Part shown: one piece after another, positions 1-12,636 of the stretch | How the letters are laid out: every line of letters starts with the position of its first letter | How positions within the stretch are numbered: the stretch's first letter is position 1 | Source of the DNA: a virus | Direction: 5' to 3' (one strand) | Length of the DNA stretch: 12,636 nt | Virus record (IMG/VR): IMGVR_UViG_3300024520_000039 | The notes under the pieces: generated by a model | Told to the model about the DNA's origin: nothing | Databases searched by the model: none | The model's input: only the letters and a program-made list of their open reading frames with translations | Translations under genes and position numbers: made by a program

Positions 1-127
1 AATTAGGATCACCAACTAATGCACCTACAGATTTAACTCTTGGATCAAACCAGCCAATAGCAGTAGCCACACAAGTTGGAGAAGATATACAAATTTCTGA
101 TAAGATACAATTAGTAGAATTTACTTG
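1..127. repeat. Terminal overlap, copy 1. Identical to 12510-12636 and marks circular closure (or a terminal redundancy) of a 12,509-bp replicon.
   Basis: Base-by-base comparison: nt 1-127 (aattaggatcaccaactaatgc...gtagaatttacttg) equal nt 12510-12636. Confidence 0.95.
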
Positions 128-1889
128 GACATATACAGATGGGACTCTACCAGCTGAGGGGTTTGAATTAAAATATACTGATGATAGTGGGTTTGAGAAT
201 TTAGTTTATCTGTCTAGCGATACAAGAAAGGCGTTTGTTGTATTTGATGCTACTACCTTTACAGCATTTATTAGAGCATTTAGAATTGATGCTGATGGAA
301 CACAATTCACCAGTGCAGCTGATCTTGAGGGAGGGATAACTCCAGATACTATTAGCACTCCAATTAGTCCATTCCAAAGAGTAGGTACAGATATAACCAC
401 TGTAAATAGTGGGGATGATGTTACTTTATCTGGAGCATTAACTGTTAGTGGGGCAGTAACAGGAGATTCAACATTAACTATACTAGACGCAAATACAACT
501 TATAGTCAAAGTTTAAGTGCTATTACATTTAATCCAACTATAACAAATGATCTGAATAACGCTTCAACTATTGGAGTAAACTTAGCACCTACATTAAGCG
601 TAGATCAAGCAGCTCAAGTTATACCTTTTGCAGGTGTAGCAGTACAGCCAACAGTTAAAAACCCTTCAAGTGCATCAACATTTCTTGGGAGTAATATTAG
701 TTTATTATCTGCACAAACTCATACAGGAGATACAAATTCTATTCAGACAAATAATACAGGTGTCTTACACCAGCCAGTATTTAATATAGCAAATGGTGGA
801 GATCTACAAGTTAATGCAGATACGGCTTTTCTTAGTGGTAATTGTACTACTGTAGACGGATCCAATATAGTAAATAAGTATGGATTTTTTATGACTAACC
901 CGACTTTACTATTTGCAGACTCAAACCTTACTAATTTGTACGGGGCATATATTGAGGACATGACTTCATGTACTAATGGTTATGGAGTGGTTATTGAAGG
1001 GGCTAAGACCAATGCTTTATGGTTAGCTAGTGGAGGAGATACAACTACTGAATCTGGAGGGGTAGTCTTTGGTGCTAGTAAAGATACTAATTTATATCGT
1101 AGTGCTGCAGATACTCTAAAAACTGATGATGGATTTGTAGCAAACTCTTTAACATTAACAACTGATTTGGCAGTAGCACATGGGGGAACAGCTGCAAGTA
1201 ATGCAGGAGATGCAAGAACAAATTTAGGAGTAGTAATAGGGACAGATGTACAAGCCTTTGATGCTAATAATGCAACAGCTAGTAGTACAACAACATTTAC
1301 AAATAAAACAATAGACGCAAATGGTACTGGAAATAGTATATCTAATATAGATGTGGCAGATTTATCAAATGGAACGGATGGAGAATTAATTACTTGGGAT
1401 AGTTCGGGAGTTCCTGCAACTGTTGGAGTTGGAACAGCTACTCATGTTTTAACCAGTAATGGGGCAGGGGCAGCTCCTACTTTTCAAGCAGCAGGTGGCG
1501 ATAACACAAGTGTAGTCTTCGGTACTTCTGAAACTAATAGAGCTTCAACACATTATCATGGTTTAGGTGGAGCTAATAGCTCTTCTCTAATAAATGTAGA
1601 GAATGTGCGTATTCCAGTAGCTGGGGTATTAAGTGATTTATATGTTCGTTGTGATACTCAACCTGGAACAGGGAGTGATGCTTGGGCTTGTCAATATTTT
1701 GTTAATGGTAGTTTGAAAAGTGGAGGGTCTGATCCTATTGCTACAATTACCTCGGCAAATAAAAACGCGGCAGACACATCAAATACTTTAACTGTTTCAG
1801 CAGGAGACCATGTAGCAGTTAGGTTTTTAGAGTTTGGAACTTGTGCAAGTGCAGCGACTGGATGGAGTGCAGTCTTTACACCCTCATAA
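1..1889 (+). CDS. Tail fibre / receptor-binding protein, distal 629 codons of a wrap-around ORF. The ORF starts at 12359 and in-frame codons begin at nt 3. The track ORF 891-1889 is only its internal-Met tail. Full product is 679 aa.
   Basis: The frame starting at nt 3 has no stop until TAA 1887-1889. It is the same frame as the ATG at 12359 once the 127-nt overlap is collapsed. Content: an FN3-like segment (LVEFTWTYTDGTLPAEGFELKY), T/S/N/G-rich beta-helix-like repeats, the fibre-type motif LAVAHGGTAASNAGDARTNLGV, and a C-terminal jelly-roll-like module (VSAGDHVAVRF). Confidence 0.75.
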   Translation, partial: LGSPTNAPTDLTLGSNQPIAVATQVGEDIQISDKIQLVEFTWTYTDGTLPAEGFELKYTDDSGFENLVYLSSDTRKAFVVFDATTFTAFIRAFRIDADGTQFTSAADLEGGITPDTISTPISPFQRVGTDITTVNSGDDVTLSGALTVSGAVTGDSTLTILDANTTYSQSLSAITFNPTITNDLNNASTIGVNLAPTLSVDQAAQVIPFAGVAVQPTVKNPSSASTFLGSNISLLSAQTHTGDTNSIQTNNTGVLHQPVFNIANGGDLQVNADTAFLSGNCTTVDGSNIVNKYGFFMTNPTLLFADSNLTNLYGAYIEDMTSCTNGYGVVIEGAKTNALWLASGGDTTTESGGVVFGASKDTNLYRSAADTLKTDDGFVANSLTLTTDLAVAHGGTAASNAGDARTNLGVVIGTDVQAFDANNATASSTTTFTNKTIDANGTGNSISNIDVADLSNGTDGELITWDSSGVPATVGVGTATHVLTSNGAGAAPTFQAAGGDNTSVVFGTSETNRASTHYHGLGGANSSSLINVENVRIPVAGVLSDLYVRCDTQPGTGSDAWACQYFVNGSLKSGGSDPIATITSANKNAADTSNTLTVSAGDHVAVRFLEFGTCASAATGWSAVFTPS

Positions 1890-2110
1890 TGAAATATAAA
1901 ATACATGATGTAGTACCATCAAAAGATCCTAGAAAATTAATGATAACTGTCATTAAGTATAGTGACACTACAGAAGAAGAGTTCACATTCGACGTGGATG
2001 GGACAACAACCAAAGAACAAGTGTTACTAGAGATTGATAACATTATGAAAGCAACAATACTAGATTATATGGATTTTAAGGTAGAACGTAACAAACCGAA
2101 AGATATATAA
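1889..2110 (+). CDS. Hypothetical small protein (73 aa, MKYKIHDVV...). The track alternative start at 1841 would overlap the fibre gene by 49 nt.
   Basis: The ATG at 1889 overlaps the fibre stop (TAATG), the junction type used throughout this genome. The frame is open to TAA 2108-2110. Confidence 0.5.
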   Translation: MKYKIHDVVPSKDPRKLMITVIKYSDTTEEEFTFDVDGTTTKEQVLLEIDNIMKATILDYMDFKVERNKPKDI

Positions 2111-2111
2111 A
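2097..2111 (+). promoter_or_regulatory. Archaeal-type BRE/TATA promoter candidate (CGAAAGA-TATATAAA) for a leaderless RHH-gene mRNA.
   Basis: The 8-nt TATA box at 2104-2111 lies exactly 21 nt upstream of ATG 2133. There is no Shine-Dalgarno sequence in between. The geometry matches the sites at 10134-10148 and 4123-4137(-). Confidence 0.5.
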
Positions 2112-2132
2112 GAGTGATTGTGTGATATCACT

Positions 2133-2270
2133 ATGAAAGAACTAAGAATAATGTTTAGGGATAAGGATTTCAAAAGAATCAAGAGAATAAAACTAAGGAC
2201 AGGATCCACATGGAACAAAGCCGTAGTCATAGCTTTTGAATTACTAGACAGGGAGTTAAACAATGGTTGA
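2133..2270 (+). CDS. Ribbon-helix-helix (CopG/Arc-like) DNA-binding protein, 45 aa. It is below the ORF-track size cutoff.
   Basis: Manual translation gives MKELRIMFRDKDFKRIKRIKLRTGSTWNKAVVIAFELLDRELNNG. This has a short N-terminal beta-strand followed by two helices, as in RHH proteins. The gene is preceded by TATA-N21-ATG and overlaps the next gene (ATGGTTGA). Confidence 0.5.
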   Translation: MKELRIMFRDKDFKRIKRIKLRTGSTWNKAVVIAFELLDRELNNG

Positions 2271-2451
2271 AAAGGAAACAATAGCAAGATATGAAACTGG
2301 TTATATTAAACTAATGAAGATGTCTAAAGGGTATAATTGGGAGATCAAATACTTTGAAGATATGAATATGCCTACATTTCAAGTAATAATGAAGAACTTA
2401 GAAGAGATAGATTCAAAGATGCAGGAAAAATGGGGGGATATTATCGTATAA
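2263..2451 (+). CDS. Hypothetical protein, 62 aa.
   Basis: Track ORF. Its start overlaps the stop of the RHH ORF by 8 nt, suggesting translational coupling. No motif recognised. Confidence 0.45.
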   Translation: MVEKETIARYETGYIKLMKMSKGYNWEIKYFEDMNMPTFQVIMKNLEEIDSKMQEKWGDIIV

Positions 2452-2540
2452 TATTCATAGGGGGGTTTTATCACCAAATACTTGCTTGATTTCCTCATAA
2501 AAATCTGGCATTCTCTTCCCCCCTTTGATTCATAATTAAA

Positions 2541-2666
2541 ATGGAAATAACTTGTACAAAATGCAATACCATTTTTATGGTAGAATGGGATTCCAACGGG
2601 ATAAGAAAAGATAAGGAGGAGATTCAATGTCCTATTTGTGATTTTGACATTATCATAATAAATTAA
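2541..2666 (+). CDS. Zinc-ribbon mini-protein, 41 aa (CxxC-N21-CxxC). It is below the ORF-track cutoff.
   Basis: Manual translation gives MEITCTKCNTIFMVEWDSNGIRKDKEEIQCPICDFDIIIIN. Stop TAA 2664-2666 lies 1 nt before the next ATG. Confidence 0.45.
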   Translation: MEITCTKCNTIFMVEWDSNGIRKDKEEIQCPICDFDIIIIN

Positions 2667-2667
2667 A

Positions 2668-2919
2668 ATGGAAACAAAAATAGGAATAATAACTTTAAGT
2701 GATAAGGAGCATTGTTTATCTTGTGGGAAAACTAACTGTCCCTCTTGTGGATTTGATGGATTCGAAATAAAAGATGTCAAAGAATTTATTAAATTGTTAA
2801 AGGAAGAGATGAACGTATTTGTGTGGGATGTAGCTAATGAAGAAGGTGGAAGTAATTTACACTATAATGAGTTAATTGATGAAATAATAGATAAACTAGC
2901 AGGAGATAAATTAATATAA
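2668..2919 (+). CDS. Zinc-knuckle protein, 83 aa (CLSCGKTNCPSCG).
   Basis: Track ORF with a CxxC-x4-CxxC motif. Its first 26 nt are 25/26 identical to the first 26 nt of the next gene. The junction with that gene is TAATG. Confidence 0.6.
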   Translation: METKIGIITLSDKEHCLSCGKTNCPSCGFDGFEIKDVKEFIKLLKEEMNVFVWDVANEEGGSNLHYNELIDEIIDKLAGDKLI

Positions 2920-3326
2920 TGGAAACAATAATAGGAATAATAACAGATAAGCAGCATAAGAGCGGTAATGCTAAGGCAACTGGTAAGCCTTATGAGATGT
3001 GGACATTCCAAGTTAATGGGGCTAAGTTTAGTACTTTTGATGCAGATGTAGGGCGTTTGTATGCTATGGGGGATAACGTTGAAGTTACTCTTGAACAAGA
3101 CGGCAAGTATAAGAAGTTACTAAATATGAAAGTATCTACATCTAAACCAGACAGTAATATGAGTAATAAACCAGAGTTTCATTTAACAGAAGAAGCAATT
3201 AGAAGTAATGCCTTAACTAGTGCTATAGCTATATGTAAGAAGGAAGAGTTATTATTTGATTATGTTATTAGATTTGAGCAATATATCAGGGAGGGCATTA
3301 AAGATGAAGCAGAAGAAGAAAGGTAG
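2919..3326 (+). CDS. OB-fold, SSB-like protein, 135 aa.
   Basis: The N-terminal ~70 aa have an alternating beta-strand pattern (IGIITDK...WTFQVNG.KFSTFD...GDNVEVTLEQDGKYKKLLNMKV). This is followed by a linker, a helical region and an acidic C-terminal tail (KDEAEEER), as in many single-stranded DNA-binding proteins. The call is by pattern only. Confidence 0.45.
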   Translation: METIIGIITDKQHKSGNAKATGKPYEMWTFQVNGAKFSTFDADVGRLYAMGDNVEVTLEQDGKYKKLLNMKVSTSKPDSNMSNKPEFHLTEEAIRSNALTSAIAICKKEELLFDYVIRFEQYIREGIKDEAEEER

Positions 3327-3405
3327 TGCCGCTGTTGTATTTATTTGGTTAGTTTTCTTTTGGCCTGCAGCGATATGGTATTATCTTGAGAGGAGGTGGG
3401 ATTAA
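3304..3405 (+). CDS. Possible 33-aa single-pass membrane micro-protein (MKQKKKGSAAVVFIWLVFFWPAAIWYYLERRWD).
   Basis: Manual ORF with a Lys-rich N-terminus followed by a hydrophobic helix. Its stop overlaps the next ATG (TAATG at 3403-3407). It overlaps the 3' end of 2919-3326 by 23 nt. Confidence 0.3.
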   Translation: MKQKKKGSAAVVFIWLVFFWPAAIWYYLERRWD

Positions 3406-3608
3406 TGGTAAAAGAAGATCTGGGGATAAAGATTGGTAGTAAAGAGGAATCCTTTTGGCAAGATGTAGTGGATTCAGAGTGTATAGAGATAGAGGGACTA
3501 GAAAAGATGATGAAGCTACATTGTGCTGTTAGGTTAATGGCACAGGATAAGGTAATTCATGAAGAAGCAAAACGAAGTAGCGATACAACTAGCGATAAGA
3601 GCTCTTGA
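3405..3608 (+). CDS. Hypothetical protein (67 aa from ATG 3405; the track uses a GTG at 3396).
   Basis: GAGAGGAGGTG (3388-3398) lies upstream of ATG 3405 and resembles a Shine-Dalgarno sequence. The frame is open to TGA 3606-3608. Confidence 0.45.
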   Translation: MVKEDLGIKIGSKEESFWQDVVDSECIEIEGLEKMMKLHCAVRLMAQDKVIHEEAKRSSDTTSDKSS

Positions 3609-3753
3609 GGATGAAGTATTAAGGTTAAATGAGTTAAAGCTAAAAGGTAAGTTTAACCTGCTCCAATCTGAACACGCTCTAAAAAGGCTTACGGGGGCTA
3701 TACTGAATATATTTATTAAGGATCCTGATACTTTGGAACAGCATCCCGAATAG
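3559..3753 (+). CDS. Hypothetical helical protein, 64 aa.
   Basis: Track ORF with a heptad-like helical sequence (AIQLAIRALEDEVLRLNELKLKG). It overlaps the previous ORF by 50 nt in the +1 frame and overlaps the convergent minus-strand ORF by 38 nt. Confidence 0.35.
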   Translation: MKKQNEVAIQLAIRALEDEVLRLNELKLKGKFNLLQSEHALKRLTGAILNIFIKDPDTLEQHPE

Positions 3754-3889
3754 CTGCTTTACCTGCTGGTGATTTCCAAAAGGATTTAGCCTCTTTCATA
3801 AGTTTGTCATAATTCTCTTTACCCATACTTTGCCTTAAATCCTCTTTACGTGATTCAAGAATTCTCTCTCTTATTGGTCCGTAGCCCAT
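3716..3889 (-). CDS. Hypothetical protein, 57 aa (MGYGPIRERILESRKEDLRQSMGKENYDKLMKEAKSFWKSPAGKAAIRDAVPKYQDP). It is below the ORF-track cutoff.
   Basis: Manual translation of the minus strand. A strong GGGAGGG sits 6 nt upstream of the ATG (plus-strand CAT 3887-3889). The start overlaps the end of the upstream minus-strand gene by 19 nt. Confidence 0.45.
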   Translation of the reverse strand: MGYGPIRERILESRKEDLRQSMGKENYDKLMKEAKSFWKSPAGKAAIRDAVPKYQDP

Positions 3890-4101
3890 AGCAATCCCTC
3901 CCTATACTCAATTAGCTCTGCAGTAACTAGATCCTTAATATACTCTCTAATCTTAATTGTTCTAACTCCCCACTCTATTGATTGTAACGCTGTTAGTTTA
4001 TTCTCATCAACACCAACACCTTTTGACGTCGCTAATCTTATTGAGTTAAGAATGATGTTTACCTTTTCTCTTCTGTTTGCTGCCTGAAACTCTCCCTTCA
4101 T
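3871..4101 (-). CDS. Small winged-helix (wHTH) DNA-binding regulator, 76 aa.
   Basis: Track ORF. The pattern LTALQSIEWGVRTIKIREYIKDLVTAELIEYREGLLWA resembles a helix-turn-helix followed by a beta-hairpin wing. It is divergent from the terminase operon and has TATA-N21-ATG with no SD. Confidence 0.55.
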   Translation of the reverse strand: MKGEFQAANRREKVNIILNSIRLATSKGVGVDENKLTALQSIEWGVRTIKIREYIKDLVTAELIEYREGLLWATDQ

Positions 4102-4122
4102 ACATATCTGTTTACTTACTCA

Positions 4123-4137
4123 TATATAAAGGTTTCT
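4123..4137 (-). promoter_or_regulatory. Archaeal-type BRE/TATA promoter candidate (minus strand AGAAACC-TTTATATA) for a leaderless wHTH mRNA.
   Basis: TTTATATA (minus strand, 4130 down to 4123) is separated by exactly 21 nt (4122-4102) from the ATG at 4101. No SD is present. Confidence 0.5.
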
Positions 4138-4167
4138 AAGCCAAACCACCAGCTACGAGATTCTATT

Positions 4168-4180
4168 AAAAAGGCTGTAT
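4168..4180 (+). repeat. 13-nt direct repeat AAAAAGGCTGTAT, copy 1. It runs into TATATAAT (4178-4185), a TATA-box or -10-like element.
   Basis: Exact 13-mer repeated at 4662-4674, 494 nt downstream. Confidence 0.85.
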
Positions 4181-4661
4181 ATAATGCTCTACTAACTAAG
4201 ATTTATCTTTCTCTTGATTATATACTTGGATACAATTTAGTATTCCCACCAGAGGTGGGGACCTAGCTTATATAAGTATAAACAACTTTGGCCGTTTGGA
4301 GACAGCGTCGACAATCTAGGCCACCTGAACCTAGTCCTCTGATGTAAACATCTTTTGAGTATAGTATGGCCTAATAATAACCGATTGGTTATTTAGTGGA
4401 TTTAGGGGTTAATATAGGTTGTATGTGCATTGTGGGGTAATAACATTGTTTCGATGATAAACCGGCACTATTATATAGATCGCTCACTATAGCAAAGCTA
4501 TACGTTCGCTGACTATTTAATGTGCGAACGGACCTATCTCGAAACGGGCGTACAGGGGCTCTAAAGGCCAAATTCGGGGTTTTTCCCGCCTAAAAACCCC
4601 TCCAAGTATGGGGATATACTAGTTATTCGGCTAACCGAACAACTCAAAAGACCGACGTTCA

Positions 4662-4674
4662 AAAAAGGCTGTAT
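4662..4674 (+). repeat. 13-nt direct repeat AAAAAGGCTGTAT, copy 2.
   Basis: Exact match to 4168-4180. It is followed 2 nt later by GTAGCTGG (4677-4684), the reverse complement of CCAGCTAC at 4149-4156. Confidence 0.85.
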
Positions 4675-4708
4675 TTGTAGCTGGGCAGAAGACTGGAGAA
4701 AATTATTA

Positions 4709-4720
4709 TTTTTATTTTTT
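4709..4720 (+). terminator. Oligo-T tract (TTTTTATTTTTT). It is a possible archaeal-style intrinsic termination signal after the structured region.
   Basis: T5 (4709-4713) and T6 (4715-4720) runs lie immediately downstream of the GC-enriched region. No canonical bacterial stem-plus-U-tract terminator is seen. Confidence 0.3.
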
Positions 4721-4753
4721 AAAAAAGATTAAAAAGTCTAATATCTTAATAAT

Positions 4754-4781
4754 ATGGGGGGGTTATCTCTTTCCCTCCCAT
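4754..4781 (+). promoter_or_regulatory. G7-run hairpin in the terminase 5' leader.
   Basis: ATGGGGGGG (4754-4762) pairs with CCCTCCCAT (4773-4781), giving 9 bp including one G-T (G-U) wobble that works only on the + strand. The loop is 10 nt. The stem ends 9 nt before ATG 4791, and there is no SD. Confidence 0.4.
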
Positions 4782-4790
4782 TAAGAGAAA

Positions 4791-6035: not shown

Positions 6036-6072
6036 CAAGAAAATAGGTAAAAAACACTAAAAAACAACTAAA

Positions 6073-6426
6073 ATGGCAGAAACTTTATGTGATTCGGGGG
6101 CAGTTAAGCTAAAAGCAGGGGCAAACGTGGCTACTTTAACAGGATCACAATATACACAATTAATAAACCAAGCTGAGGCGGATATAATGGCTTCAACCCG
6201 TATAGACTGGGTAAATCTATACAGTAGTCTGGACGCAGAAAACAAACTTATACTAGAGGCAGCCTGTAGTGATAAAGCAGGGATATATGCAATAAGCTAT
6301 GATATGTCAGGATACACCAGTCGAGCAGAAGCAATAACCATGTTAAATGTATTATGGGCAAGTTTTACTGATGCTTTGAGAGTATTAAAAGAAGATAATT
6401 CAAAAACTTATCTTGGAGGTAGCTGA
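6073..6426 (+). CDS. Possible head-tail connector/adaptor (gp6-like helical protein), 117 aa.
   Basis: Small helical protein within the head morphogenesis block. The segment QYTQLINQAEADIMASTR resembles the conserved helix of head-tail connector families. Evidence is weak and by eye only. Confidence 0.35.
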   Translation: MAETLCDSGAVKLKAGANVATLTGSQYTQLINQAEADIMASTRIDWVNLYSSLDAENKLILEAACSDKAGIYAISYDMSGYTSRAEAITMLNVLWASFTDALRVLKEDNSKTYLGGS

Positions 6427-7067
6427 TGGGAATATTACCAACAACAATCCCCCAACAAGCAGAAAGCCCTTTGATTACTTTCTCTTTTACTGATGTTGCA
6501 GAAGGAACTGGTATTCAAACCTTCTTCTTAGCTAATACAAAAGAAGATACAACTACTAGTTATTTACTAACAGGTAATGAGATATATAGTAATGATCAAA
6601 TTGAAACAGTATCTTTAGCAATAGATACATCAAGTTTTACTAAATTTGGAGATTTTGATTTTGACACTTCAGTATTAAACCTACCAAGAAACATAAGAGG
6701 TACTTTATCATCTAATTTATTCTGGAGTATTCAAAAAGCAACTGGATTTGTTTGCCAGGGATACATTATACTAAAGTTAAGGAAATGGGATGGAACTACT
6801 GAAACTGAAGTTACTTCTGTTCAATCTGAAACTGTAACTTCAACTCAAGCAGGAGTGGAACAAATTAGTGCAGTTCAAGTTTTAGTTAGTGATACACATT
6901 TTAAAAAGGGAGATACTATCAGATTAACTGTGGAAGTCTGGGCTAAAAATACAGATCCATCAAATCAAGGAACAATTAAATTTGGAAATGACCCTCAAAA
7001 TAGAATTGATGATATTTCAGAAGGAAGTAAATCGACGGTGTATATGCCGTTTAGGATAGACTCATAA
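6426..7067 (+). CDS. Virion-associated beta-sandwich protein of unknown role, 213 aa.
   Basis: GGAGG lies 8 nt upstream, with a TGATG junction to the previous gene and a TAATG junction to the portal gene. It is T/S-rich with beta-strand periodicity and a KKGDTIRLTVEVWA motif like the other two jelly-roll-like modules. Confidence 0.45.
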   Translation: MGILPTTIPQQAESPLITFSFTDVAEGTGIQTFFLANTKEDTTTSYLLTGNEIYSNDQIETVSLAIDTSSFTKFGDFDFDTSVLNLPRNIRGTLSSNLFWSIQKATGFVCQGYIILKLRKWDGTTETEVTSVQSETVTSTQAGVEQISAVQVLVSDTHFKKGDTIRLTVEVWAKNTDPSNQGTIKFGNDPQNRIDDISEGSKSTVYMPFRIDS

Positions 7068-8158
7068 TGGGAGAATTTGACTTAAACAAAACAACAGTAA
7101 CAGACCTAAGTGGAACTGTGGACGACTTCAAAGTAAACACACAAACCTTAGACTCTCCAGGAGAACAACAAGATGAAACAACTTATACTTTTGATAAAGC
7201 AGCAGAACAATTAGGTTACTACAAGTCTATACCTGAATTAAAAAAGGCAATAGATAGCCTAGCTATTTGGAGTGTTGCACAAGGATTTAAATCAGACGCA
7301 AGAACAAAATCAACTCTAGACTCTTTAACTGGATGGGGAGAAGATAGTTTTACTAGTATAGTTAGAAACCTAATAACTCAAAAGAAGATATTCGGAGATG
7401 CTTTCGCAGAAATAATAAGGGGAGATAATAATTCTATAATTAATATTAAACCACTATATACTGGAGATATGAAAGTAGTTGTTGATGGTAAGGGGATAAT
7501 AAAAAGATATGAACAGCTAAGTAGTAATAAAAAAAGCAAACCAAAAGTATTTGCACCAAATGAAATACTACATTTAGCAAACAATAGAATAGGTAATGAG
7601 ATTCATGGCGTAAGTGTTGTTGATGCTGTTAAGTGGGTTATAGATTCAAGAGCAGAAGCAATGAACGATTGGAGAAGACTCTCCCATAGATCAACAATTA
7701 GACTAATGTATATTGATGCAGATAATACAACCAAACTTAATTCAATAAAGACTGAGTATGCAAGTGCTATTGACAAAGGAGAACTAATGCTTATACCAGC
7801 TAAGAAAGGAGAGGCTGAGTTCCAAGATTTAGATCTACCGCCAATACAAAACCATCTTCAATGGATCCAATACTTAGAGAACTATTTCTACCAGGCGGTA
7901 GGAGTACCACGAGTTATTGCAACCTCTGAAAACTTTACCGAAGCTGCCTCTAAGATTGGATTCCTAACTTTTGAACCTATATACACAAGTGAACAAGTAG
8001 AGTTAGAAAGTGACCTTTGGTTACAAGCAGCAATAAAAGTTACATTTACTAGACCTCCTAGTCTAAGTGGGGTAGCACAAGACAATGAAGAAAAGAACAC
8101 AGGACAAACTGGATTTCAACAAAATGAAAGCCAAGTCGGTGTAGGGAGGACGGAATAA
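7067..8158 (+). CDS. Portal protein, 363 aa.
   Basis: Size and position within the terminase/head gene block. Central segments typical of portals are present (FGDAFAEIIR...ILHLANNRIGNEIHGVSVVDAV...). The C-terminus is disordered and Q/N/E-rich. Confidence 0.75.
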   Translation: MGEFDLNKTTVTDLSGTVDDFKVNTQTLDSPGEQQDETTYTFDKAAEQLGYYKSIPELKKAIDSLAIWSVAQGFKSDARTKSTLDSLTGWGEDSFTSIVRNLITQKKIFGDAFAEIIRGDNNSIINIKPLYTGDMKVVVDGKGIIKRYEQLSSNKKSKPKVFAPNEILHLANNRIGNEIHGVSVVDAVKWVIDSRAEAMNDWRRLSHRSTIRLMYIDADNTTKLNSIKTEYASAIDKGELMLIPAKKGEAEFQDLDLPPIQNHLQWIQYLENYFYQAVGVPRVIATSENFTEAASKIGFLTFEPIYTSEQVELESDLWLQAAIKVTFTRPPSLSGVAQDNEEKNTGQTGFQQNESQVGVGRTE

Positions 8159-8343
8159 TGACAAAGAAGAAACAAACCCATAAACCCTTAATTGAAACTA
8201 TAATTAATACATCTGCCTTAGCCTTAACAGCGTTTGGAGTTCAACAAATAACTATGAGTAATTGGGAAGGATACGGGTCTTTACTACTAGGTGTTATGTT
8301 GGAGTTTGCTAAATACTGGGGTAGAAAGGAGGAACTATGGTAA
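8158..8343 (+). CDS. Small membrane protein with two predicted TM helices, 61 aa. A holin-like role is possible but unsupported.
   Basis: GGGAGG SD and a TAATG junction. Hydrophobic segments IINTSALALTAFGVQQI and GYGSLLLGVMLEFAKYW. Confidence 0.4.
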   Translation: MTKKKQTHKPLIETIINTSALALTAFGVQQITMSNWEGYGSLLLGVMLEFAKYWGRKEELW

Positions 8344-9386
8344 CTAAGAAGAAGAAGAAGCAAATTTTTAATCAAACTCCAGCTACTCCGTTTGACTTAG
8401 CCAGAGGTAATAAAGAAACTCAAGATTCAACACCTAATAAAGGAACAGGATTCACTACTCAACCTGATCCTGGAGGAAAAGCAATATCCTTAAGTGATCC
8501 TGAAAAAGGAGGACAAACAACAGGTTTAGTATTACCAGATGGAAGGACATTACTTGGACTTAGTAAAGCAGATGTAGCAAAATTAACTCAAAGGTTTGAT
8601 GATGATTTAGGTGAGGGTAAAGGAGTTATAAGTGGAGTGGCACAAGGCGAAGCACTAGCACAAAGAAAAGCAGAAGGGTTACCAACTACAGATGAAGAAG
8701 CAGCAAGACTAGGAGAAGAACAAGGAGTTTTCAAAGATGTAACACAACCTCAATTAGAAGCACAATCTATTTTTACAGCAAAAGGAATTAGAGAAGCAGA
8801 AGCAGCAGCACAAGCGACTAACCCTTTAAACGGATTAAGAAAACAACTAAAGGGAGTTATACCAGAAGGCGAAGATACGCCACTTAGAATATTATTTGAA
8901 GGACAAAGAAAGATGATAGACTTAATTTTTGATGGGGCAGGTAGGAGAATAGCTTTAGTAAATGCAGCAAAGGAAATACCTGGATCAGTTCCTTTCGTTG
9001 GAGGGGCAGTTCAAACACTTACTCGTGACCCCCAAAAAGATGTTAATGAAATAAAAGGGAGTTTTGAAGCAAGAAACCAATTAGTAGCCAATGTTGCTGT
9101 AGATGTCTTACAGGAAGATATGTTAGCAGCAGATGGTTTTAGGGCATTAAATGAACATGAGAAAAGAGTAAACGAATATCTAGAAGAAATAAGAACGCAA
9201 GTAATCTTAAGCCCTTCCTTAAGAACTTCTGAACTAGAAGACTTAGAAGTGGATGCCTTAGAATTATTAGAGGAAATACAAGGGGCAAGAGGGGACATAT
9301 TTGAAGTAAGTGTTGGGACAAACCCAGACCCAGAAAGGATAGCTATGAAGATTGAGAGATATAAGAAACTTTTAAAGAAAGTGTAA
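8337..9386 (+). CDS. Scaffolding-like or internal head protein, 349 aa.
   Basis: AAGGAGG SD. The N-terminus is Lys-rich and disordered, followed by long E/A/K/Q-rich helical regions. The gene lies between the portal and capsid genes. No protease catalytic motif recognised. Confidence 0.5.
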   Translation: MVTKKKKKQIFNQTPATPFDLARGNKETQDSTPNKGTGFTTQPDPGGKAISLSDPEKGGQTTGLVLPDGRTLLGLSKADVAKLTQRFDDDLGEGKGVISGVAQGEALAQRKAEGLPTTDEEAARLGEEQGVFKDVTQPQLEAQSIFTAKGIREAEAAAQATNPLNGLRKQLKGVIPEGEDTPLRILFEGQRKMIDLIFDGAGRRIALVNAAKEIPGSVPFVGGAVQTLTRDPQKDVNEIKGSFEARNQLVANVAVDVLQEDMLAADGFRALNEHEKRVNEYLEEIRTQVILSPSLRTSELEDLEVDALELLEEIQGARGDIFEVSVGTNPDPERIAMKIERYKKLLKKV

Positions 9387-9396
9387 GGAGGTTAAA

Positions 9397-9648
9397 ATGA
9401 ACGAAAAAGAAACCAAAGAGATAAAAGATAATGAAGAGAAAGAAGAACACCCACTTGTCCAAACAGCACAGGAAGCGGCAACTCGTCTTGAGGCGGCTAA
9501 CAAAAAGGCTGAGGAAATTCTTAAAGCTAATCTTGAACTAGAGGCTAGAGGTAGACTTGGAGGAAAAGCAGATATTACAGTTCCTAAGAAGGATGAAGAA
9601 GTCAGCGCTGAGGATTATGCAAAACAAGTTCTAGGAGGTAAGTTATAA
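9397..9648 (+). CDS. Small charged coiled-coil protein (scaffold-like), 83 aa.
   Basis: AGGAGG SD with 6-nt spacing. E/K-rich helical sequence (AATRLEAANKKAEEILKANLELEARG). Confidence 0.5.
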   Translation: MNEKETKEIKDNEEKEEHPLVQTAQEAATRLEAANKKAEEILKANLELEARGRLGGKADITVPKKDEEVSAEDYAKQVLGGKL

Positions 9649-10067
9649 TGCACTTATACGTAATGGCTAAGGGGATAAAGCCCCATCTTGAAACTTGGCA
9701 GAATGAACTATTAGCCCAAAAGTTACCACTCATGAGGGATGGAAAACCAGTAATAGAAGAAGGAAATAGACAAATGTTCGTACAATTAGCAGTAAGACCA
9801 GTACAACTATTTGAGATAGGATTCCCAAAAGAACATCTTGATTATGTTATGAATGTCGTTGGTACTGGAGATTATATACTAGATCGTTATCCTATTCTAA
9901 ACTATAGTGCTAAGGCTCTGCGAAAGAGTTTTGGACTAAAGGATGTACCTATACCAAAGGCACCTAATATGTTAATGCAGCCAGAACCAACTCAAAAATC
10001 AGTTGCAATAGTCCCAATAGGTATAAAGGAGGACATGTTTAGCAAGGATGGAGTTGAGCAACTTTGA
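9648..10067 (+). CDS. Hypothetical head-module protein, 139 aa.
   Basis: AGGAGG SD and a TAATG junction. No motif recognised. Confidence 0.5.
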   Translation: MHLYVMAKGIKPHLETWQNELLAQKLPLMRDGKPVIEEGNRQMFVQLAVRPVQLFEIGFPKEHLDYVMNVVGTGDYILDRYPILNYSAKALRKSFGLKDVPIPKAPNMLMQPEPTQKSVAIVPIGIKEDMFSKDGVEQL

Positions 10068-10149
10068 CTTATGGTTCTTTAGAATAGGTGCTTTAGGCAT
10101 GATTCTAATAAAATCTTATCAAGTCTTTATTAAGGAAAGATTTAAATAA
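10048..10149 (+). CDS. Possible 33-aa membrane micro-protein (MELSNFDLWFFRIGALGMILIKSYQVFIKERFK).
   Basis: Manual ORF overlapping the end of 9648-10067 by 20 nt. It has a hydrophobic core followed by a basic tail and fills most of an otherwise non-coding 102-nt gap. Its 3' end overlaps the TATA box at 10141-10148. Confidence 0.25.
   Translation: MELSNFDLWFFRIGALGMILIKSYQVFIKERFK
10134..10148 (+). promoter_or_regulatory. Archaeal-type BRE/TATA promoter candidate (GGAAAGA-TTTAAATA) for a leaderless decoration/capsid mRNA.
   Basis: TTTAAATA (10141-10148) is followed by exactly 21 nt and then ATG 10170. No SD is present. The GAAAGA element is shared with the site at 2097-2111. Confidence 0.5.
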
Positions 10150-10169
10150 TAGTACTGTGTAGTCCTAAC

Positions 10170-10595
10170 ATGGCAAATGAGGCGATTTGGAGAGATAACT
10201 TGGGAGAAACTCCTATAGATTTTACTGTTGCAGACGGTACAGGGATTGAAAAAGGAGCTTTATGCAAATTAACAGATCCTAGAACAGCAGCACTTTCTGA
10301 CACACTAGGAGAACCTATTGCAGGTATTGCAGCTAGAGAAAAGATAGCAAATAATACAATAACTAGACTTGCATTTCACAGAAAGGGTATTTTTGATATG
10401 GTAGCTAGTGGTGCAATTACAGTTGGAGAACCTGTAACAACAGCAGCAGACGCAAACTACCCAAACACAGTTAGAGTTGCTTTAGAGAGTGCTATTTCAG
10501 GAGCAGCAGTTATAGGACACTCACTTGAAACAGCATCTGATGGTGAAGTAGTTCAAATTTTATTTAACATAGGAAGTGGATCTCCGCAGAAATAA
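10170..10595 (+). CDS. Head decoration / capsid cement protein (DUF2190-like), 141 aa.
   Basis: Pattern ...GTGIEKGALCKLTD...IAGIAAREK...GIFDMVASGAITVGEPV...AVIGHSLETASDGEVVQILFN, typical of DUF2190-type decoration proteins. The gene lies immediately upstream of the major capsid gene. Confidence 0.6.
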   Translation: MANEAIWRDNLGETPIDFTVADGTGIEKGALCKLTDPRTAALSDTLGEPIAGIAAREKIANNTITRLAFHRKGIFDMVASGAITVGEPVTTAADANYPNTVRVALESAISGAAVIGHSLETASDGEVVQILFNIGSGSPQK

Positions 10596-10596
10596 A

Positions 10597-10659
10597 ATGA
10601 ATGACGAAGAAGTAACACCTACAGAAGAAGAAGAAAATAAAGAGGAGGAAGAAGAATAA
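10597..10659 (+). CDS. Possible 20-aa acidic micro-ORF (MNDEEVTPTEEEENKEEEEE). It may equally be only a purine-rich spacer carrying the capsid gene's SD.
   Basis: Manual ORF whose stop overlaps the capsid ATG (TAATG). It contains GAGGAGG 11 nt upstream of ATG 10659. Confidence 0.15.
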   Translation: MNDEEVTPTEEEENKEEEEE

Positions 10660-11525
10660 TGGCAGATACAGTAGAACAGGCAGACATAAGGGGATTAGAT
10701 ATAGATAAAGCTGTAAAAGGATTTGCTTTAACAGAATATATTTTTAAGAACTTAGTTTCACAAGGTACAACATCAGGAGATTCTATTAGATGGTACAAGG
10801 AAACAGCAGCAGACTTAACAGCAACAGCACCAAGTGTTATTGCTAACATCTCACCATTAAGTACATTCCCAACTCTTGAAGTATCTTGGACAAGAAATAC
10901 TAGTTATGTAAGAAAATATGCAGCTGAAGGATTCTTATCTATGGAAGATATGAAGTCAGCAGATATTGATGTATTAGCTAGAACTCTACTTAGATTAACT
11001 AGGGCAGTAGTAAAGCAAGTAGATACTAGAATTTATAACGTATTAACTGAATCTCAATCACCAAGTGATATTGGAACAGCAGCTGCTACAGGAACAGGAT
11101 GGGATGATACAACTAATGGAAACCCAGTATTAGATATTATGGCAGCAAAGCAAAACATAGCTGAGAATGATTATGACTTAGCATCTTGTATTGTAGCTAT
11201 GAACCCTAAGAACCATAAGGATTTACTTAACTATTTAATAACAGTAAAAGGATCTAGTATCCCAAGTTTCTCAAGTGAGAAGGTACAAACTGGTATAGTT
11301 ATGAACCTATTAGGTTGTCGAGTGGTAGTAAGTAATAACGTTGTAGCAGATTCAGTTTATGTAGGATTACCTGCTAAAGCTGCAACTTGGAAAACATTCA
11401 CAGGAACAACAGCAAGAGTTATTGAAGATCCTGGACTCGGAAGTAAGGTAAGAGTATGGGAAATTGGAGAAGCTATTTTAACAGATCCTAAGGCATGTTA
11501 TTTAATTACTGATACAGATACATAA
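10659..11525 (+). CDS. Major capsid protein, HK97 fold, 288 aa.
   Basis: Position after the scaffold and decoration genes. A spine-helix-like segment DVLARTLLRLTRAVVKQVDTRIYNVL is present. The region GWDD..NPVLDIMAAKQNI...AMNPKNHKDL and the C-terminal VWEIGEAILTDPKACYLI are typical of HK97-like capsid families. Confidence 0.8.
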   Translation: MADTVEQADIRGLDIDKAVKGFALTEYIFKNLVSQGTTSGDSIRWYKETAADLTATAPSVIANISPLSTFPTLEVSWTRNTSYVRKYAAEGFLSMEDMKSADIDVLARTLLRLTRAVVKQVDTRIYNVLTESQSPSDIGTAAATGTGWDDTTNGNPVLDIMAAKQNIAENDYDLASCIVAMNPKNHKDLLNYLITVKGSSIPSFSSEKVQTGIVMNLLGCRVVVSNNVVADSVYVGLPAKAATWKTFTGTTARVIEDPGLGSKVRVWEIGEAILTDPKACYLITDTDT

Positions 11526-11686
11526 TGACAAAAGAAAATTCTAAAAAGTTATACGATTTTTACTTAGAAAGTGGTAACATCAAAGCAGCTACTAACATGC
11601 TTAATAAGTACCCTGACTTTGCAACAAAGAAGAAAGTAGTAGTAGAAGAAGTTGTAGAAGAAAAAGAAAAAATTAAAAAGAAGTAA
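11525..11686 (+). CDS. Hypothetical 53-aa protein with a Lys/Glu-rich tail. It is below the ORF-track cutoff.
   Basis: Manual ORF MTKENSKKLYDFYLESGNIKAATNMLNKYPDFATKKKVVVEEVVEEKEKIKKK, joined to the capsid gene by a TAATG junction. Confidence 0.4.
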   Translation: MTKENSKKLYDFYLESGNIKAATNMLNKYPDFATKKKVVVEEVVEEKEKIKKK

Positions 11687-11700
11687 TACGTATAATTCTA

Positions 11701-11823
11701 ATGGTAGAAGTAGGAACAGGAACAATAGGTACTAGATTTATAGAAACTGATTATCCTAATAGTGGTGGTCTTGTCGCTGGTACAACTATTACCTGGGAAG
11801 ATAAAGATCTGGAGATTTCATAA
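11701..11823 (+). CDS. Hypothetical 40-aa protein (MVEVGTGTIGTRFIETDYPNSGGLVAGTTITWEDKDLEIS). It is below the ORF-track cutoff.
   Basis: Manual ORF joined to the next gene by a TAATG junction. An A/T-only octamer ATTAAAAA (11672-11679) again lies exactly 21 nt upstream of the ATG; this site is weaker than the other three. Confidence 0.35.
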   Translation: MVEVGTGTIGTRFIETDYPNSGGLVAGTTITWEDKDLEIS

Positions 11824-12359
11824 TGGTACCTGGATTAGCAGCTAACGCACATCCCACAAATTTTGTATTACCTAATCAAAGTGGTATGGAAAACAATTCT
11901 AGATTTCTAAATGAAATGCAAGTTTACGGAGAGATATGGGTTAAGGATAATACTACAGAAACAACTCTAAATAGTGCAGCAAAGGCACAAATATTAGTAT
12001 TTACTGATGATGGAGATGCAGAAGGGAGTAAGCCTGAATTTGAAGAGGGACATATAGAGATAAAAAAAGCAGGGAAATATATGGTTAATGTCGCTATGTC
12101 TATGAGCAATACAGCAGGACAAGGCCATGTCGTTAGTGTTGGATTATTTGTAAATAATGGAGAAGATCCATTTAATAATGTCCATGCAGGTAGAGGATTA
12201 ACAACAGCATCAACAGTTGGTAACGCTCATATGTCAGGGATATGTAACTTTGATGTTGGGGATACTGTGGAACTATGGGCTATTACTGATAGCGGCCAGG
12301 ATAGGAATGTATTATTTGAAGATGTAACATTAAGTATAACAAGGGTAGGTAAATTATAA
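11823..12359 (+). CDS. C1q/TNF-like (BclA-C-terminal-like) jelly-roll protein, 178 aa. Probably a fibre-tip or receptor-binding component.
   Basis: Strand pattern YGEIWV...HIEIKKAGKYMVNVAMSMS...VSVGLFVNNGED...MSGICNFDVGDTVELWAI...VTLSITRV matches the C1q/TNF jelly-roll signature. TAATG junctions lie on both sides, and the gene is directly upstream of the fibre ORF. Confidence 0.5.
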   Translation: MVPGLAANAHPTNFVLPNQSGMENNSRFLNEMQVYGEIWVKDNTTETTLNSAAKAQILVFTDDGDAEGSKPEFEEGHIEIKKAGKYMVNVAMSMSNTAGQGHVVSVGLFVNNGEDPFNNVHAGRGLTTASTVGNAHMSGICNFDVGDTVELWAITDSGQDRNVLFEDVTLSITRVGKL

Positions 12360-12636
12360 TGGGAGGACAAGGGAGTGGAAGAAAACCAGATGAGGCGAAG
12401 AGGTTTATAGAAACTCATGCTAATGTAGCAGCTGCAGGAAAAGAAGGTTTAGTTATCCCAAATTATTCTGGTATAAGAGATGATATAAATAAAGGTAGAG
12501 TTGGGAAAAAATTAGGATCACCAACTAATGCACCTACAGATTTAACTCTTGGATCAAACCAGCCAATAGCAGTAGCCACACAAGTTGGAGAAGATATACA
12601 AATTTCTGATAAGATACAATTAGTAGAATTTACTTG
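12359..12636 (+). CDS. Tail fibre / receptor-binding protein, 5' part of the wrap-around ORF that continues at nt 3-1889 (MGGQGSGRKPDEAKRFIETHANVAAAGKEG...).
   Basis: The ATG at 12359 overlaps the preceding stop (TAATG). An in-frame stop at 12350-12352 precludes an earlier start. The frame is open to the window end and is in phase with nt 3 onward via the 127-nt overlap. Confidence 0.75.
   Translation, partial: MGGQGSGRKPDEAKRFIETHANVAAAGKEGLVIPNYSGIRDDINKGRVGKKLGSPTNAPTDLTLGSNQPIAVATQVGEDIQISDKIQLVEFT
12510..12636. repeat. Terminal overlap, copy 2 (identical to 1-127).
   Basis: Base-by-base identity with the window start. Confidence 0.95.

Follow-up and report, generated by a model that had tools for sequence, protein, structure and literature searches.

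A complete 12.5-kb capsid-portal-terminase virus genome with archaeal-type promoters and no recognisable replication protein

Introduction

Newly isolated archaeal tailed viruses have genomes of 35–105 kb (PMC8651126), and VerdaV2, a member of the Verdandiviridae of Asgard archaea, has a genome of 19.5 kb (bioRxiv 10.1101/2025.06.18.659913); the latter source sets the lower size limit for isolated tailed phages at 11.6 kb. The phi29 group has been called the smallest known tailed viruses (PMC11476376), and Caudoviricetes of 7.4 kb have been predicted from metagenomes, as cited in bioRxiv 10.1101/2025.08.03.668216. Here, we analyze the 12,636-nt IMG/VR virus record IMGVR_UViG_3300024520_000039 (hereafter the window). 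An initial annotation, made from the letters alone, had described it as a complete head-tail-type viral genome without recognisable replication, integration, tail-tube and lysis genes. With a probability of roughly 0.6 by our estimate, an uncultivated capsid-portal-terminase virus (HK97, Caudoviricetes-type) that infects an archaeon is represented here by its complete genome. The size alone is no record, because of the predicted Caudoviricetes of 7.4 kb.

To our knowledge, the classified archaeal tailed viruses start near 20 kb. Both Mycoplasma phage P1 and the phi29-like phages encode a protein-primed DNA polymerase and a terminal protein; phi29 also relies on a packaging RNA. Satellites are integrated and carry an integrase, usually together with a primase or a Rep protein. 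The lack of a prohead protease or a small terminase (TerS) has precedents in podoviruses of the T7, P22 and phi29 types.

Results

Relationship to described viruses

A megablast search with the whole genome gave no match among GenBank phages. The capsid and portal proteins had no tblastn match (E<=1e-3) in 50,697 GenBank phage and archaeal-virus records, nor in PLSDB; their homologues were found in metagenomes. Against the 50,697 records, only the large terminase (TerL) gave matches, at no more than 32% identity. The closest deposited virus by TerL was Halogranum tailed virus 1 (HGTV-1), with 32% identity over 97% of the length (5e-44), and many bacterial phages had related TerL proteins at 24–27% identity. 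The capsid and portal proteins showed no detectable similarity of the kind expected for classified archaeal tailed-virus families (e.g. Shortaselviridae, Verdandiviridae, Magrovirales). The literature, as far as it was covered, brought up no account of the family; this coverage is incomplete, so that a prior description is possible.

Several groups of small elements were compared and ruled out. The marine virion-encapsidated satellites known as VEIMEs encode no capsid protein (PMC9618062), and the Charybdis elements are 4.6 kb long and have no HK97 protein. The gut "twilight" mini-viruses are encapsulin-like elements without portal and terminase.

Closure of the genome and size of the relatives

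Bases 1–127 of the window are an exact 127-nt match to bases 12510–12636, and collapsing this assembly overlap gives a unit of 12,509 bp. Once circularised, the junction is crossed by an open reading frame (ORF) of 679 aa (12359..12636, then 128..1889). An independent MEGAHIT contig, L033, is 12,650 bp long with a 141-bp overlap, which again yields a 12,509-bp unit, and is 100% identical to the window. This contig is cut inside TerL and crosses the window junction without a break, such that the 679-aa gene is a single uninterrupted ORF. The overlap lengths in the window, L033 and the relatives (127, 141, 114, 59, 55 and 43) resemble assembler k-mers, indicating a circular assembly graph and no physical terminal repeat. 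As judged from the assemblies, the genome is either circular or linear and circularly permuted.

In 11 relatives the contig is likewise circular, the unit being 11.34–12.52 kb, and two longer contigs (L013 and L018, 18.3 and 21.4 kb) run through more than one turn of a single gene order with a period of approximately 11.7–12 kb. The contig cut points vary in gene-order position among the family members, as expected of circles and unlike linear genomes with fixed ends. For the capsid protein, which has 1208 metagenome homologues, the longest carrier contigs cluster at 10–12.65 kb, and the longest contigs carrying TerL homologues show a similar pile-up, up to 13.8 kb. These assemblies confirm the initial annotation in that the window represents a complete genome and no fragment of a larger one.

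One family head module was found on a longer contig. This 35-kb MEGAHIT contig (L010; region 1-17492) matches an 11.5-kb genome of the family (L011) at 99.9% identity across 8.2 kb, then leaves the family sequence inside a fibre gene and enters DNA of lower GC content (30%). The further course of the non-family DNA is present on a separate 23.8-kb contig (L048) in a JGI (Joint Genome Institute) assembly. The 35-kb contig is probably a chimera, with a larger relative as the alternative.

About two thirds of the genome is a single rightward block that runs from TerL through the fibre proteins, in the order TerL, a 117-aa protein, a jelly-roll protein, portal, a scaffold-like set, cement protein, capsid protein and fibre proteins. 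The remaining approximately 2 kb contain fast-changing tiny genes and a short leftward operon of two genes.

Packaging and head genes

The recognisable content of the genome is virion morphogenesis, as annotated initially, and the calls of TerL, portal, cement and capsid proteins are each backed by profile matches. TerL (414 aa; 4791-6035, + strand) matched Terminase_6N (2e-17), Terminase_6C (1.7e-5) and phrog_2 (1e-44), and combines a T4-type ATPase with an RNaseH-like nuclease domain. Its PDB matches were gp17 of T4 and RB49 and the TerL entry 4zni. The Walker A and Walker B motifs and the acidic residues of the nuclease region are invariant across 25 TerL proteins of the family. The portal protein (363 aa; 7067-8158, + strand) matched phrog_12 (1.4e-12) and PF04860 (7e-9), the latter with a score of 35.7 bits, slightly below the gathering score of 39.1; portal orthologues in the relatives have recorded matches to PF04860/PF06074.

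The cement or decoration protein (DUF2190, Phage_cement_2; 10170-10595, + strand) matched PF09956 (2e-7; 31.7 bits versus a cut-off of 24). The major capsid protein (288 aa; 10659-11525, + strand) matched PF25209 (Phage_capsid_4; 1e-10, 42.8 bits versus a cut-off of 27) and phrog_1650, "major head protein" (3e-26), and is assigned on these profiles to the HK97 type at the level of family. The window displays three Duplodnaviria and Caudoviricetes-type hallmarks, namely an HK97-type capsid protein, a portal and a two-domain TerL.

The capsid protein is the best conserved of the core proteins, with 52–85% identity in most loci as compared to 40–55% for TerL and 36–58% for the portal; set against TerL at 40–55%, its identity is 60–85%. 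Tailed viruses usually show the inverse order.

Relatives differ in the ORF abutting or overlapping the TerL start, which encodes a nuclease (HNH or Hjc/Mrr-like), a cytosine methylase, a CcdA-like ribbon-helix-helix (RHH) protein or a short helical protein (L013 3677-3976, L025 2-304, L018 9775-10035, L023 493-753, L026 1040-1336, L003 1008-1535, L020 1643-2065). The window has no gene at this position. With such mixed identities among the relatives and its absence from the window, this ORF was rejected as a small terminase.

Core proteins of uncertain role

A comparison of 19–24 related loci defined a core set of nine proteins, which in addition to TerL, portal, cement and capsid comprises proteins of 117 aa (6073-6426), 213 aa (6426-7067), 300–370 aa (8337-9386), 80–100 aa (Glu/Lys-rich; 9397-9648) and 139 aa (9648-10067). 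The 117-aa protein (+ strand) is kept in 15 distinct sequences of related loci. It had no match in the Pfam, PHROG or PDB sequence-profile searches and is a tentative candidate for a head-tail adaptor. The only match of a concatenated query of three core proteins was a 291-aa protein on an 11.7-kb contig (P0250), which aligned with about a quarter of the query at 51% identity; the alignment length fits the 117-aa protein, of which P0250 may be a fused or extended version.

The 213-aa protein (6426..7067, + strand) was the one unassigned ORF for which structure prediction ran well. Its AlphaFold2 (AF2) model, based on 150 homologues, is a jelly-roll beta-sandwich with a flexible N-terminal arm of approximately 25 aa (predicted local distance difference test, pLDDT, 94.2; predicted template-modelling score, pTM, 0.87). 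Foldseek returned cocaine esterase entries (template-modelling score, TM, 0.55) and RANKL/TNF-family ligands and, in BFVD, large collagen-repeat, intramolecular-chaperone and tail fibre proteins. With a modelled jelly roll similar to fibre-knob or TNF-type domains, a tail tube was ruled out for this protein, which on the model is a candidate neck, knob or vertex protein. A total of 2297 clusters (50% identity) match it at E<=1e-3.

The 349-aa core protein (8337..9386, + strand) evolves fast and has an N-terminus of low complexity that is rich in Lys; 15 of its 17 positional orthologues are linked by BLASTP. Neither this protein nor its orthologues had a Pfam, PHROG or protease match, and the C-terminal region gave only weak PDB matches of the coiled-coil type. 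It is a candidate scaffold or internal (ejection) protein. The scaffold-like protein of 83 aa (9397..9648, + strand) is Glu/Lys-rich, with 42% charged residues, and is kept in 17 distinct sequences of related loci. The 139-aa protein (9648..10067, + strand), defined by the family alignment, had no Pfam, PHROG or PDB match, and its single-sequence AF2 model was unusable (pLDDT 37). The PDB-sequence profile searches with six proteins (6073-6426, 6426-7067, 9648-10067, 8337-9386, 2919-3326 and 3871-4101) gave matches at chance level only. Between the portal and the 349-aa protein lies a 61-aa, moderately hydrophobic protein (8158..8343, + strand), a candidate for a role in particle release.

Replication, integration, tail and lysis genes

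The Pfam and PHROG scans took in 20 of the 26 window ORFs, among them all those of at least 62 aa; the other six are of 40–61 aa. Among the 20 scanned ORFs there was no match to a polymerase, primase, helicase, Rep or integrase, and none to TerS, a protease, a tail tube, a sheath, a tape measure or a lysin. The scan was extended to 150 non-core proteins from 24 related loci, with the Pfam families listed completely and the PHROG families as the best 25 of 56. No such families were present among the matches listed for these proteins, apart from two single PHROG matches that are weighed in the Discussion. The Pfam families of the relatives were lectin or fibre domains, CcdA-type RHH (3), cytosine methylase, HNH, Hjc-type nuclease and MarR/winged-helix, and the PHROG matches listed include fibre and tail-protein families. 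The precomputed Pfam assignments of every gene called in L010-L024 and in L033 likewise contained no replication, integration, protease or tail-tube families. The genes for replication, integration, TerS, protease and tail tube that were initially annotated as missing thus have no profile match in the window scans or among the families listed for the relatives.

As to the tail, no families were detected in the window Pfam and PHROG scans or the Pfam scan of the relatives, and fibre-like proteins were present. An integrase was found neither in the window scans nor among the listed families of the relatives. Two scans of 185,579 species genomes, of limited sensitivity, recovered no family copy with cellular flanks; the family matches were only short free-standing contigs of 1.5–11 kb, binned in metagenome-assembled genomes (MAGs).

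The window contains no tRNA gene and had no Rfam match at E<=1 except for two chance-level hits. In one relative of 12.6 kb (L023), ARAGORN predicted two adjacent tRNA-Ser-like genes (10956-11128) of 75–76 nt, which is short for tRNA-Ser; the remaining 27 loci of the scan yielded no tRNA prediction.

Promoters and the host domain

The first genes of the transcription units in the window are preceded by TATA boxes and the internal genes by GGAGG Shine-Dalgarno sites. The TATA box TTTATATA (4123..4130, - strand) starts 29 nt before the ATG at 4101, in the manner of an archaeal-type leaderless promoter. The TATA box TTTAAATA (10141..10148, + strand) starts 29 nt before the ATG of the cement gene (10170), is preceded by GGAAAG, similar to a B recognition element (BRE), and is the promoter of the cement and capsid genes. 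The spacing recurs in the family. Considering ORFs of at least 40 aa with ATG starts in 17 family genomes, TTTAWATA (<=1 mismatch) was located exactly 29 nt before the ATG in 45 cases. The count falls to 14 at 30 nt and 10 at 31 nt, and each of the remaining distances between 8 and 59 nt gave about 4. A purine-rich AGAAA is located two bases upstream of the TATA box in the family genomes.

Archaeal leaderless mRNAs have promoters of this geometry, in which the TATA box follows a BRE-like element and is centred approximately 26 nt ahead of the start codon, and bacterial -10/-35 elements would not produce such a pattern. The host is therefore probably an archaeon, a possibility that the initial annotation had not raised, as judged from the BRE/TATA signal at a fixed 29 nt before start codons. 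An archaeal host would also make the missing endolysin ordinary. Other hints in this direction are the position of HGTV-1, a haloarchaeal virus, as the nearest TerL by a wide margin, the capsid protein of one relative that was deposited in two Heimdallarchaeaceae MAGs and, as a weak hint, the Hjc/Mrr-like nucleases that abut TerL in some relatives (1e-5 at best, 7e-3 when re-scanned). Inferring the host lineage from MAG labels was rejected, since the labels are inconsistent.

TerL itself has neither a TATA box at -29 nor a Shine-Dalgarno motif. A hairpin with a 9-bp stem, ATGGGGGGG...CCCTCCCAT (4753-4780), is located approximately 10 nt before its start codon.

Two further short contigs in archaeal MAGs, L029 (11.5 kb, Nitrososphaeria MAG) and L030 (Wolframiiraptor MAG), carry distant TerL relatives at 28% identity. 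The former hints at further small archaeal capsid-terminase viruses outside the family of the window.

Gene-free region and palindrome

Upstream of TerL, the gene maps show a gene-free region of 689 bp (4102..4790), which measures 700–1100 bp in all relatives and is a candidate for the replication origin, the packaging site and a divergent promoter region. An ORF inside it (4389-4571, - strand) is probably spurious. The segment 4230-4700 folds better than shuffled sequences (z -2.9 for the + strand and -5.2 for the - strand) and no Rfam family matched the region. Several short GC-rich hairpins lie in this segment, and the gene-free region ends in an AT-rich run. The structured core is bracketed by two copies of a 13-nt direct repeat, AAAAAGGCTGTAT (4168..4180 and 4662-4674, + strand).

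The only DNA of the gene-free region that is conserved family-wide is a 22-bp, operator-like dyad with the consensus GTTATTCGGTTAACCGAATAAC; the flanking DNA is no longer alignable. The window copy, GTTATTCGGCTAACCGAACAAC (4622..4643), has two changes. An exact scan of IMG/VR for the palindrome identified 14 contigs, and 10 of these belong to the family. Besides the window, the palindrome is present in L003 (~6990), L004 (~2655), L034 (9073), L036 (2926), L037 (8438), L038 (7358), L039 (4639 and 9988), L041 (9128), L043 (3199), L044 (975), L045 (5511) and L046 (361). It occupies one of two places, either the gene-free region before TerL or a site 4–10 nt ahead of the BRE/TATA that serves the cement and capsid genes. 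The cement promoter of the window itself has no palindrome.

Such a placement would suit an operator through which a dimeric DNA-binding protein controls late promoters. The palindrome is conserved and the small viral genes are not, suggesting that the protein bound to it may be supplied by the host or belong to the viral core set. The 20-nt core of the palindrome was also present in four IMG/VR contigs without family genes (L035, L040, L042 and L047; 21–66 kb), three of which have a GC content of 47–51%. These occurrences could be due to chance or reflect a host-factor site shared by unrelated elements.

Fibre proteins

The 679-aa protein is encoded across the junction, with its 5' part at 12359..12636 and its 3' part at 128..1889 (+ strand). 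Conservation is confined to aa 1-45, and this segment recurs at the same position on proteins of 134–853 aa in 16 related loci. The rest of the protein is variable, rich in Ser, Thr, Gly and Asn, and presumed to be receptor-binding. The protein itself had no Pfam or PHROG match, and syntenic proteins in the relatives matched lectin (Laminin_G_3), PKD and "tail fiber" PHROG families. The pattern suggests a fibre composed of a conserved virion anchor and exchangeable receptor-binding parts. Upstream of it, a 178-aa protein (11823..12359, + strand) is a candidate second fibre or knob. The initial annotation had called this beta-rich protein C1q-like, a call backed by a weak, sub-threshold match to BclA_C (C1q/TNF-like; 3.5e-4; 20.9 bits versus a cut-off of 38). 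Two small ORFs of 53 aa and 40 aa (11525-11686 and 11701-11823, + strand) are partly kept after the capsid gene in relatives.

Small-gene module

The module at 1889-4101 is highly variable between relatives. It starts with a 73-aa ORF (1889..2110, + strand) that had no significant Pfam or PHROG match and was called as a gene in L033. The next ORF encodes a basic protein of 45–50 aa (2118..2270, + strand), RHH-like by pattern and without a library match; three CcdA-type RHH proteins were identified in the Pfam scan of the relatives. A semi-conserved ORF of 62 aa (2263..2451, + strand) has homologues in L003 (70%), L007 and L018/19. Of the two initially annotated Zn-ribbon proteins, the one of 41 aa (2541..2666, + strand) has four Cys residues and is weakly backed by Zn_ribbon_4 (3.7e-5, below the gathering score), and the one of 83 aa (2668..2919, + strand) was recognised by its N-terminal CxxC...CxxC pattern, next to a weak FYVE match.

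The 135-aa protein that follows (2919..3326, + strand) has two domains, a beta-rich N-domain and a conserved helical C-domain with an EFHLS.EQVR.NAL motif. The Pfam, PHROG and PDB profiles gave no support for its earlier label as an oligonucleotide-binding (OB) fold, single-stranded DNA-binding (SSB) protein. A small membrane protein of 33–49 aa, depending on the choice of start (3256..3405, + strand), has one hydrophobic helix (Kyte-Doolittle 19-residue maximum 1.90), which makes it a candidate holin-like or membrane factor. The acidic helical protein of 67–70 aa (3396..3608, + strand) has homologues directly upstream of TerL in L002 and L009; a role as packaging accessory or TerS substitute is speculative. 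The last ORF of the rightward unit, of 64 aa (3559..3753, + strand), had no significant Pfam or PHROG match and was called in L033.

The leftward operon starts with a winged-helix-like protein, by pattern, of 76 aa (3871..4101, - strand), with homologues in L022, L003 and L005 and no library match, which is a candidate regulator. The second gene is a basic ORF of 57 aa (3716..3889, - strand) with a GGAGGG Shine-Dalgarno-like motif upstream, also called in L033. Overall, the RHH, winged helix-turn-helix and OB-fold/SSB labels of this module are plausible as sequence patterns, and none has significant library support.

Discussion

The best reading of the data is an autonomous, short-tailed archaeal virus of an undescribed family that depends on the host replisome. 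The initial annotation had left the choice between a minimal virus and a satellite; the lack of a detected integrase or of a family copy with cellular flanks in the genome scans, the possession of its own fibres and promoters, and the huge family of fixed genome size favour an autonomous virus. Without a recognisable polymerase, primase, helicase or initiator, the virus would recruit the host replisome. The origin would lie within the structured gene-free region, and recruitment may involve one of the small DNA-binding proteins or a palindrome-binding factor of the host. Concatemers would result, which the T4-type TerL with its intact nuclease domain would cut and package by headful, a process that would explain the circular closure of the assemblies. 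Packaging would proceed without a recognisable TerS, with possible help from an HNH or Hjc-like nuclease in some relatives.

The capsid protein, at 288 aa, would be too short for a delta domain and would assemble, without a protease, on a separate scaffold (9397-9648 and/or 8337-9386). By genome-length scaling, a small shell of T=3 or T=4 would be expected, reinforced by the cement protein. A minimal podovirus-like neck may be formed by the proteins encoded at 6073-6426, 6426-7067 and possibly 9648-10067, to which the fibres would attach via the anchor of approximately 45 aa. For release, a host with only an S-layer would require no endolysin, and the small membrane proteins (3256-3405, 8158-8343) are candidates for this step.

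Several observations weigh against this interpretation. Two single PHROG matches in the relatives were to "replication initiation protein" (2e-9) and "endolysin" (2e-7); their source proteins were not found on a re-scan of 30 candidate proteins of the relatives. Small initiators of the winged-helix or RHH type are hard to recognise, such that "no replication gene" is to be read as "none recognisable". No tail, adaptor or nozzle proteins were identified by homology, and a particle without a tail, or with the tail of a helper, is possible. The structure-level analysis covered one of the ORFs without assignment, such that homologues of known proteins may yet exist for 6073-6426, 8337-9386, 9648-10067 and the small ORFs. 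Each of the two genome scans used two peptide patterns only, which integrated copies could escape. The MAG bins of family contigs conflict, with two labelled Heimdallarchaeaceae and others Balneolia, Saccharibacteria and "uncultured archaeon", and the 35-kb contig joins a family head module to other DNA. Finally, the origin, the headful packaging, the T number and the scaffold roles are all deduced.

A capsid-forming satellite-like element, which builds its own small head and obtains replication, tail parts or release from a helper virus, is an unlikely explanation. In its favour, no tail or replication protein was identified by homology, the size is within the satellite range, the head-rich content recalls the capsid-forming phage-inducible chromosomal islands (cf-PICIs), and no replication, tail-tube, tape-measure or lysis genes were recognised in the window scans or among the families listed for the relatives. 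However, this explanation fits poorly with the failure to find an integrase in the window or among the families listed for the 150 proteins of the relatives, or a copy with cellular flanks in the 185,579 species genomes. It also fits poorly with fibres that have a family-wide anchor, with own regulated promoters and with an enormous family of fixed genome size for which no candidate helper sharing sequence was seen.

We consider it improbable that the window is a minimal podophage of a bacterium, such as a small-celled member of the Patescibacteria or a member of the Bacteroidota. Family contigs in a Balneolia MAG and a Saccharibacteria MAG, the GGAGG Shine-Dalgarno sites and the bacterial-phage relatives of TerL at 24–27% identity are compatible with such a host, but the TATA box fixed at 29 nt before the ATG, together with AGAAA, has the archaeal BRE/TATA geometry and not that of -10/-35 elements, and the top TerL match is by far that of a haloarchaeal virus. 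The MAG bins, which conflict and hold whole-virus contigs, are weak evidence either way.

Equally doubtful is a non-integrating, plasmid-like temperate virus that is kept as a circular, host-replicated episome and forms particles only occasionally, a reading that differs from the autonomous archaeal virus in lifestyle only. The circular map and the lack of a detected integrase would suit an episome, as would the divergent regulator operon adjoining a long non-coding region and the CcdA-type RHH proteins of relatives, which could be antitoxin-like or partition-like regulators, but the window scans and the Pfam scan of the relatives contained no ParA/ParB, toxin or plasmid Rep family and PLSDB gave no match. 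An assembly artefact, in the form of a mis-circularised piece of a larger virus genome, has in its favour the head module on the 35-kb, chimera-like contig and is highly improbable, as two assemblers, cutting at different points, arrived at one 12,509-bp unit, 11 relatives close at 11.3–12.5 kb and two contigs pass through more than one turn.

Going beyond the autonomous archaeal virus as such, we tentatively propose that the window represents a globally distributed, undescribed family, perhaps a higher taxon, of the smallest autonomous capsid-portal-terminase viruses known for Archaea, without a replication protein of their own. In such viruses, replication, late transcription and perhaps packaging may be centred on the structured region of 0.7–1.1 kb and the palindrome. 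It is less likely that the structured region encodes an RNA that replaces the small terminase, by analogy with the packaging RNA of phi29.

The genome suggests a practical lower bound for a capsid-portal-terminase virus, at about 10 conserved genes in about 12 kb and, if the archaeal assignment is true, small tailed-type viruses extend to Archaea. With more than 1,200 capsid clusters and approximately 2,300 clusters of one core protein, a common component of the virome may go unclassified. The fixed-distance BRE/TATA signal provides a simple flag, from sequence only, for archaeal viruses among small metagenomic contigs, and the palindrome provides a handle for finding the regulator and, through the regulator, the host.

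Among the known systems, cf-PICIs and other satellites resemble the window in being approximately 10–15 kb, rich in head genes and without tail-tube and lysis genes, but for the window no integrase, Rep or copy with cellular flanks was found, and fibre genes are present. Compared to podoviruses of the T7 and P22 types, the window is a third of the size and had no adaptor, nozzle or internal core homologue and no RNA or DNA polymerase; shared features, as inferred for the window, are a separate scaffold and a fibre with an N-terminal anchor and swappable distal parts. Mycoplasma phage P1 (~11.6 kb) and the phi29-like Salasmaviridae (16–20 kb) are, like the window, at the lower size edge of tailed viruses, and the window shares with the smallest tailed phages an inferred short tail and the lack of a prohead protease and TerS. 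It differs from the phi29-like phages in that no polymerase, terminal protein or packaging RNA was detected (Pfam/PHROG and Rfam), in a TerL with a nuclease domain and in the probable host domain.

With the archaeal tailed viruses, and HGTV-1 in particular, the window has in common an HK97-type capsid, a portal and a T4-type TerL, and its promoters are of the archaeal type. The genome of HGTV-1 is 144 kb as compared to approximately 12.5 kb for the window, in which replication, tube, sheath and tape-measure genes were not detected. No capsid or portal similarity to the Verdandiviridae was seen in the GenBank phage set, which is assumed to include verdandivirus records. Like the window, the Verdandiviridae are small HK97-type archaeal viruses derived from metagenomes, and the window is smaller still, by approximately 7 kb.

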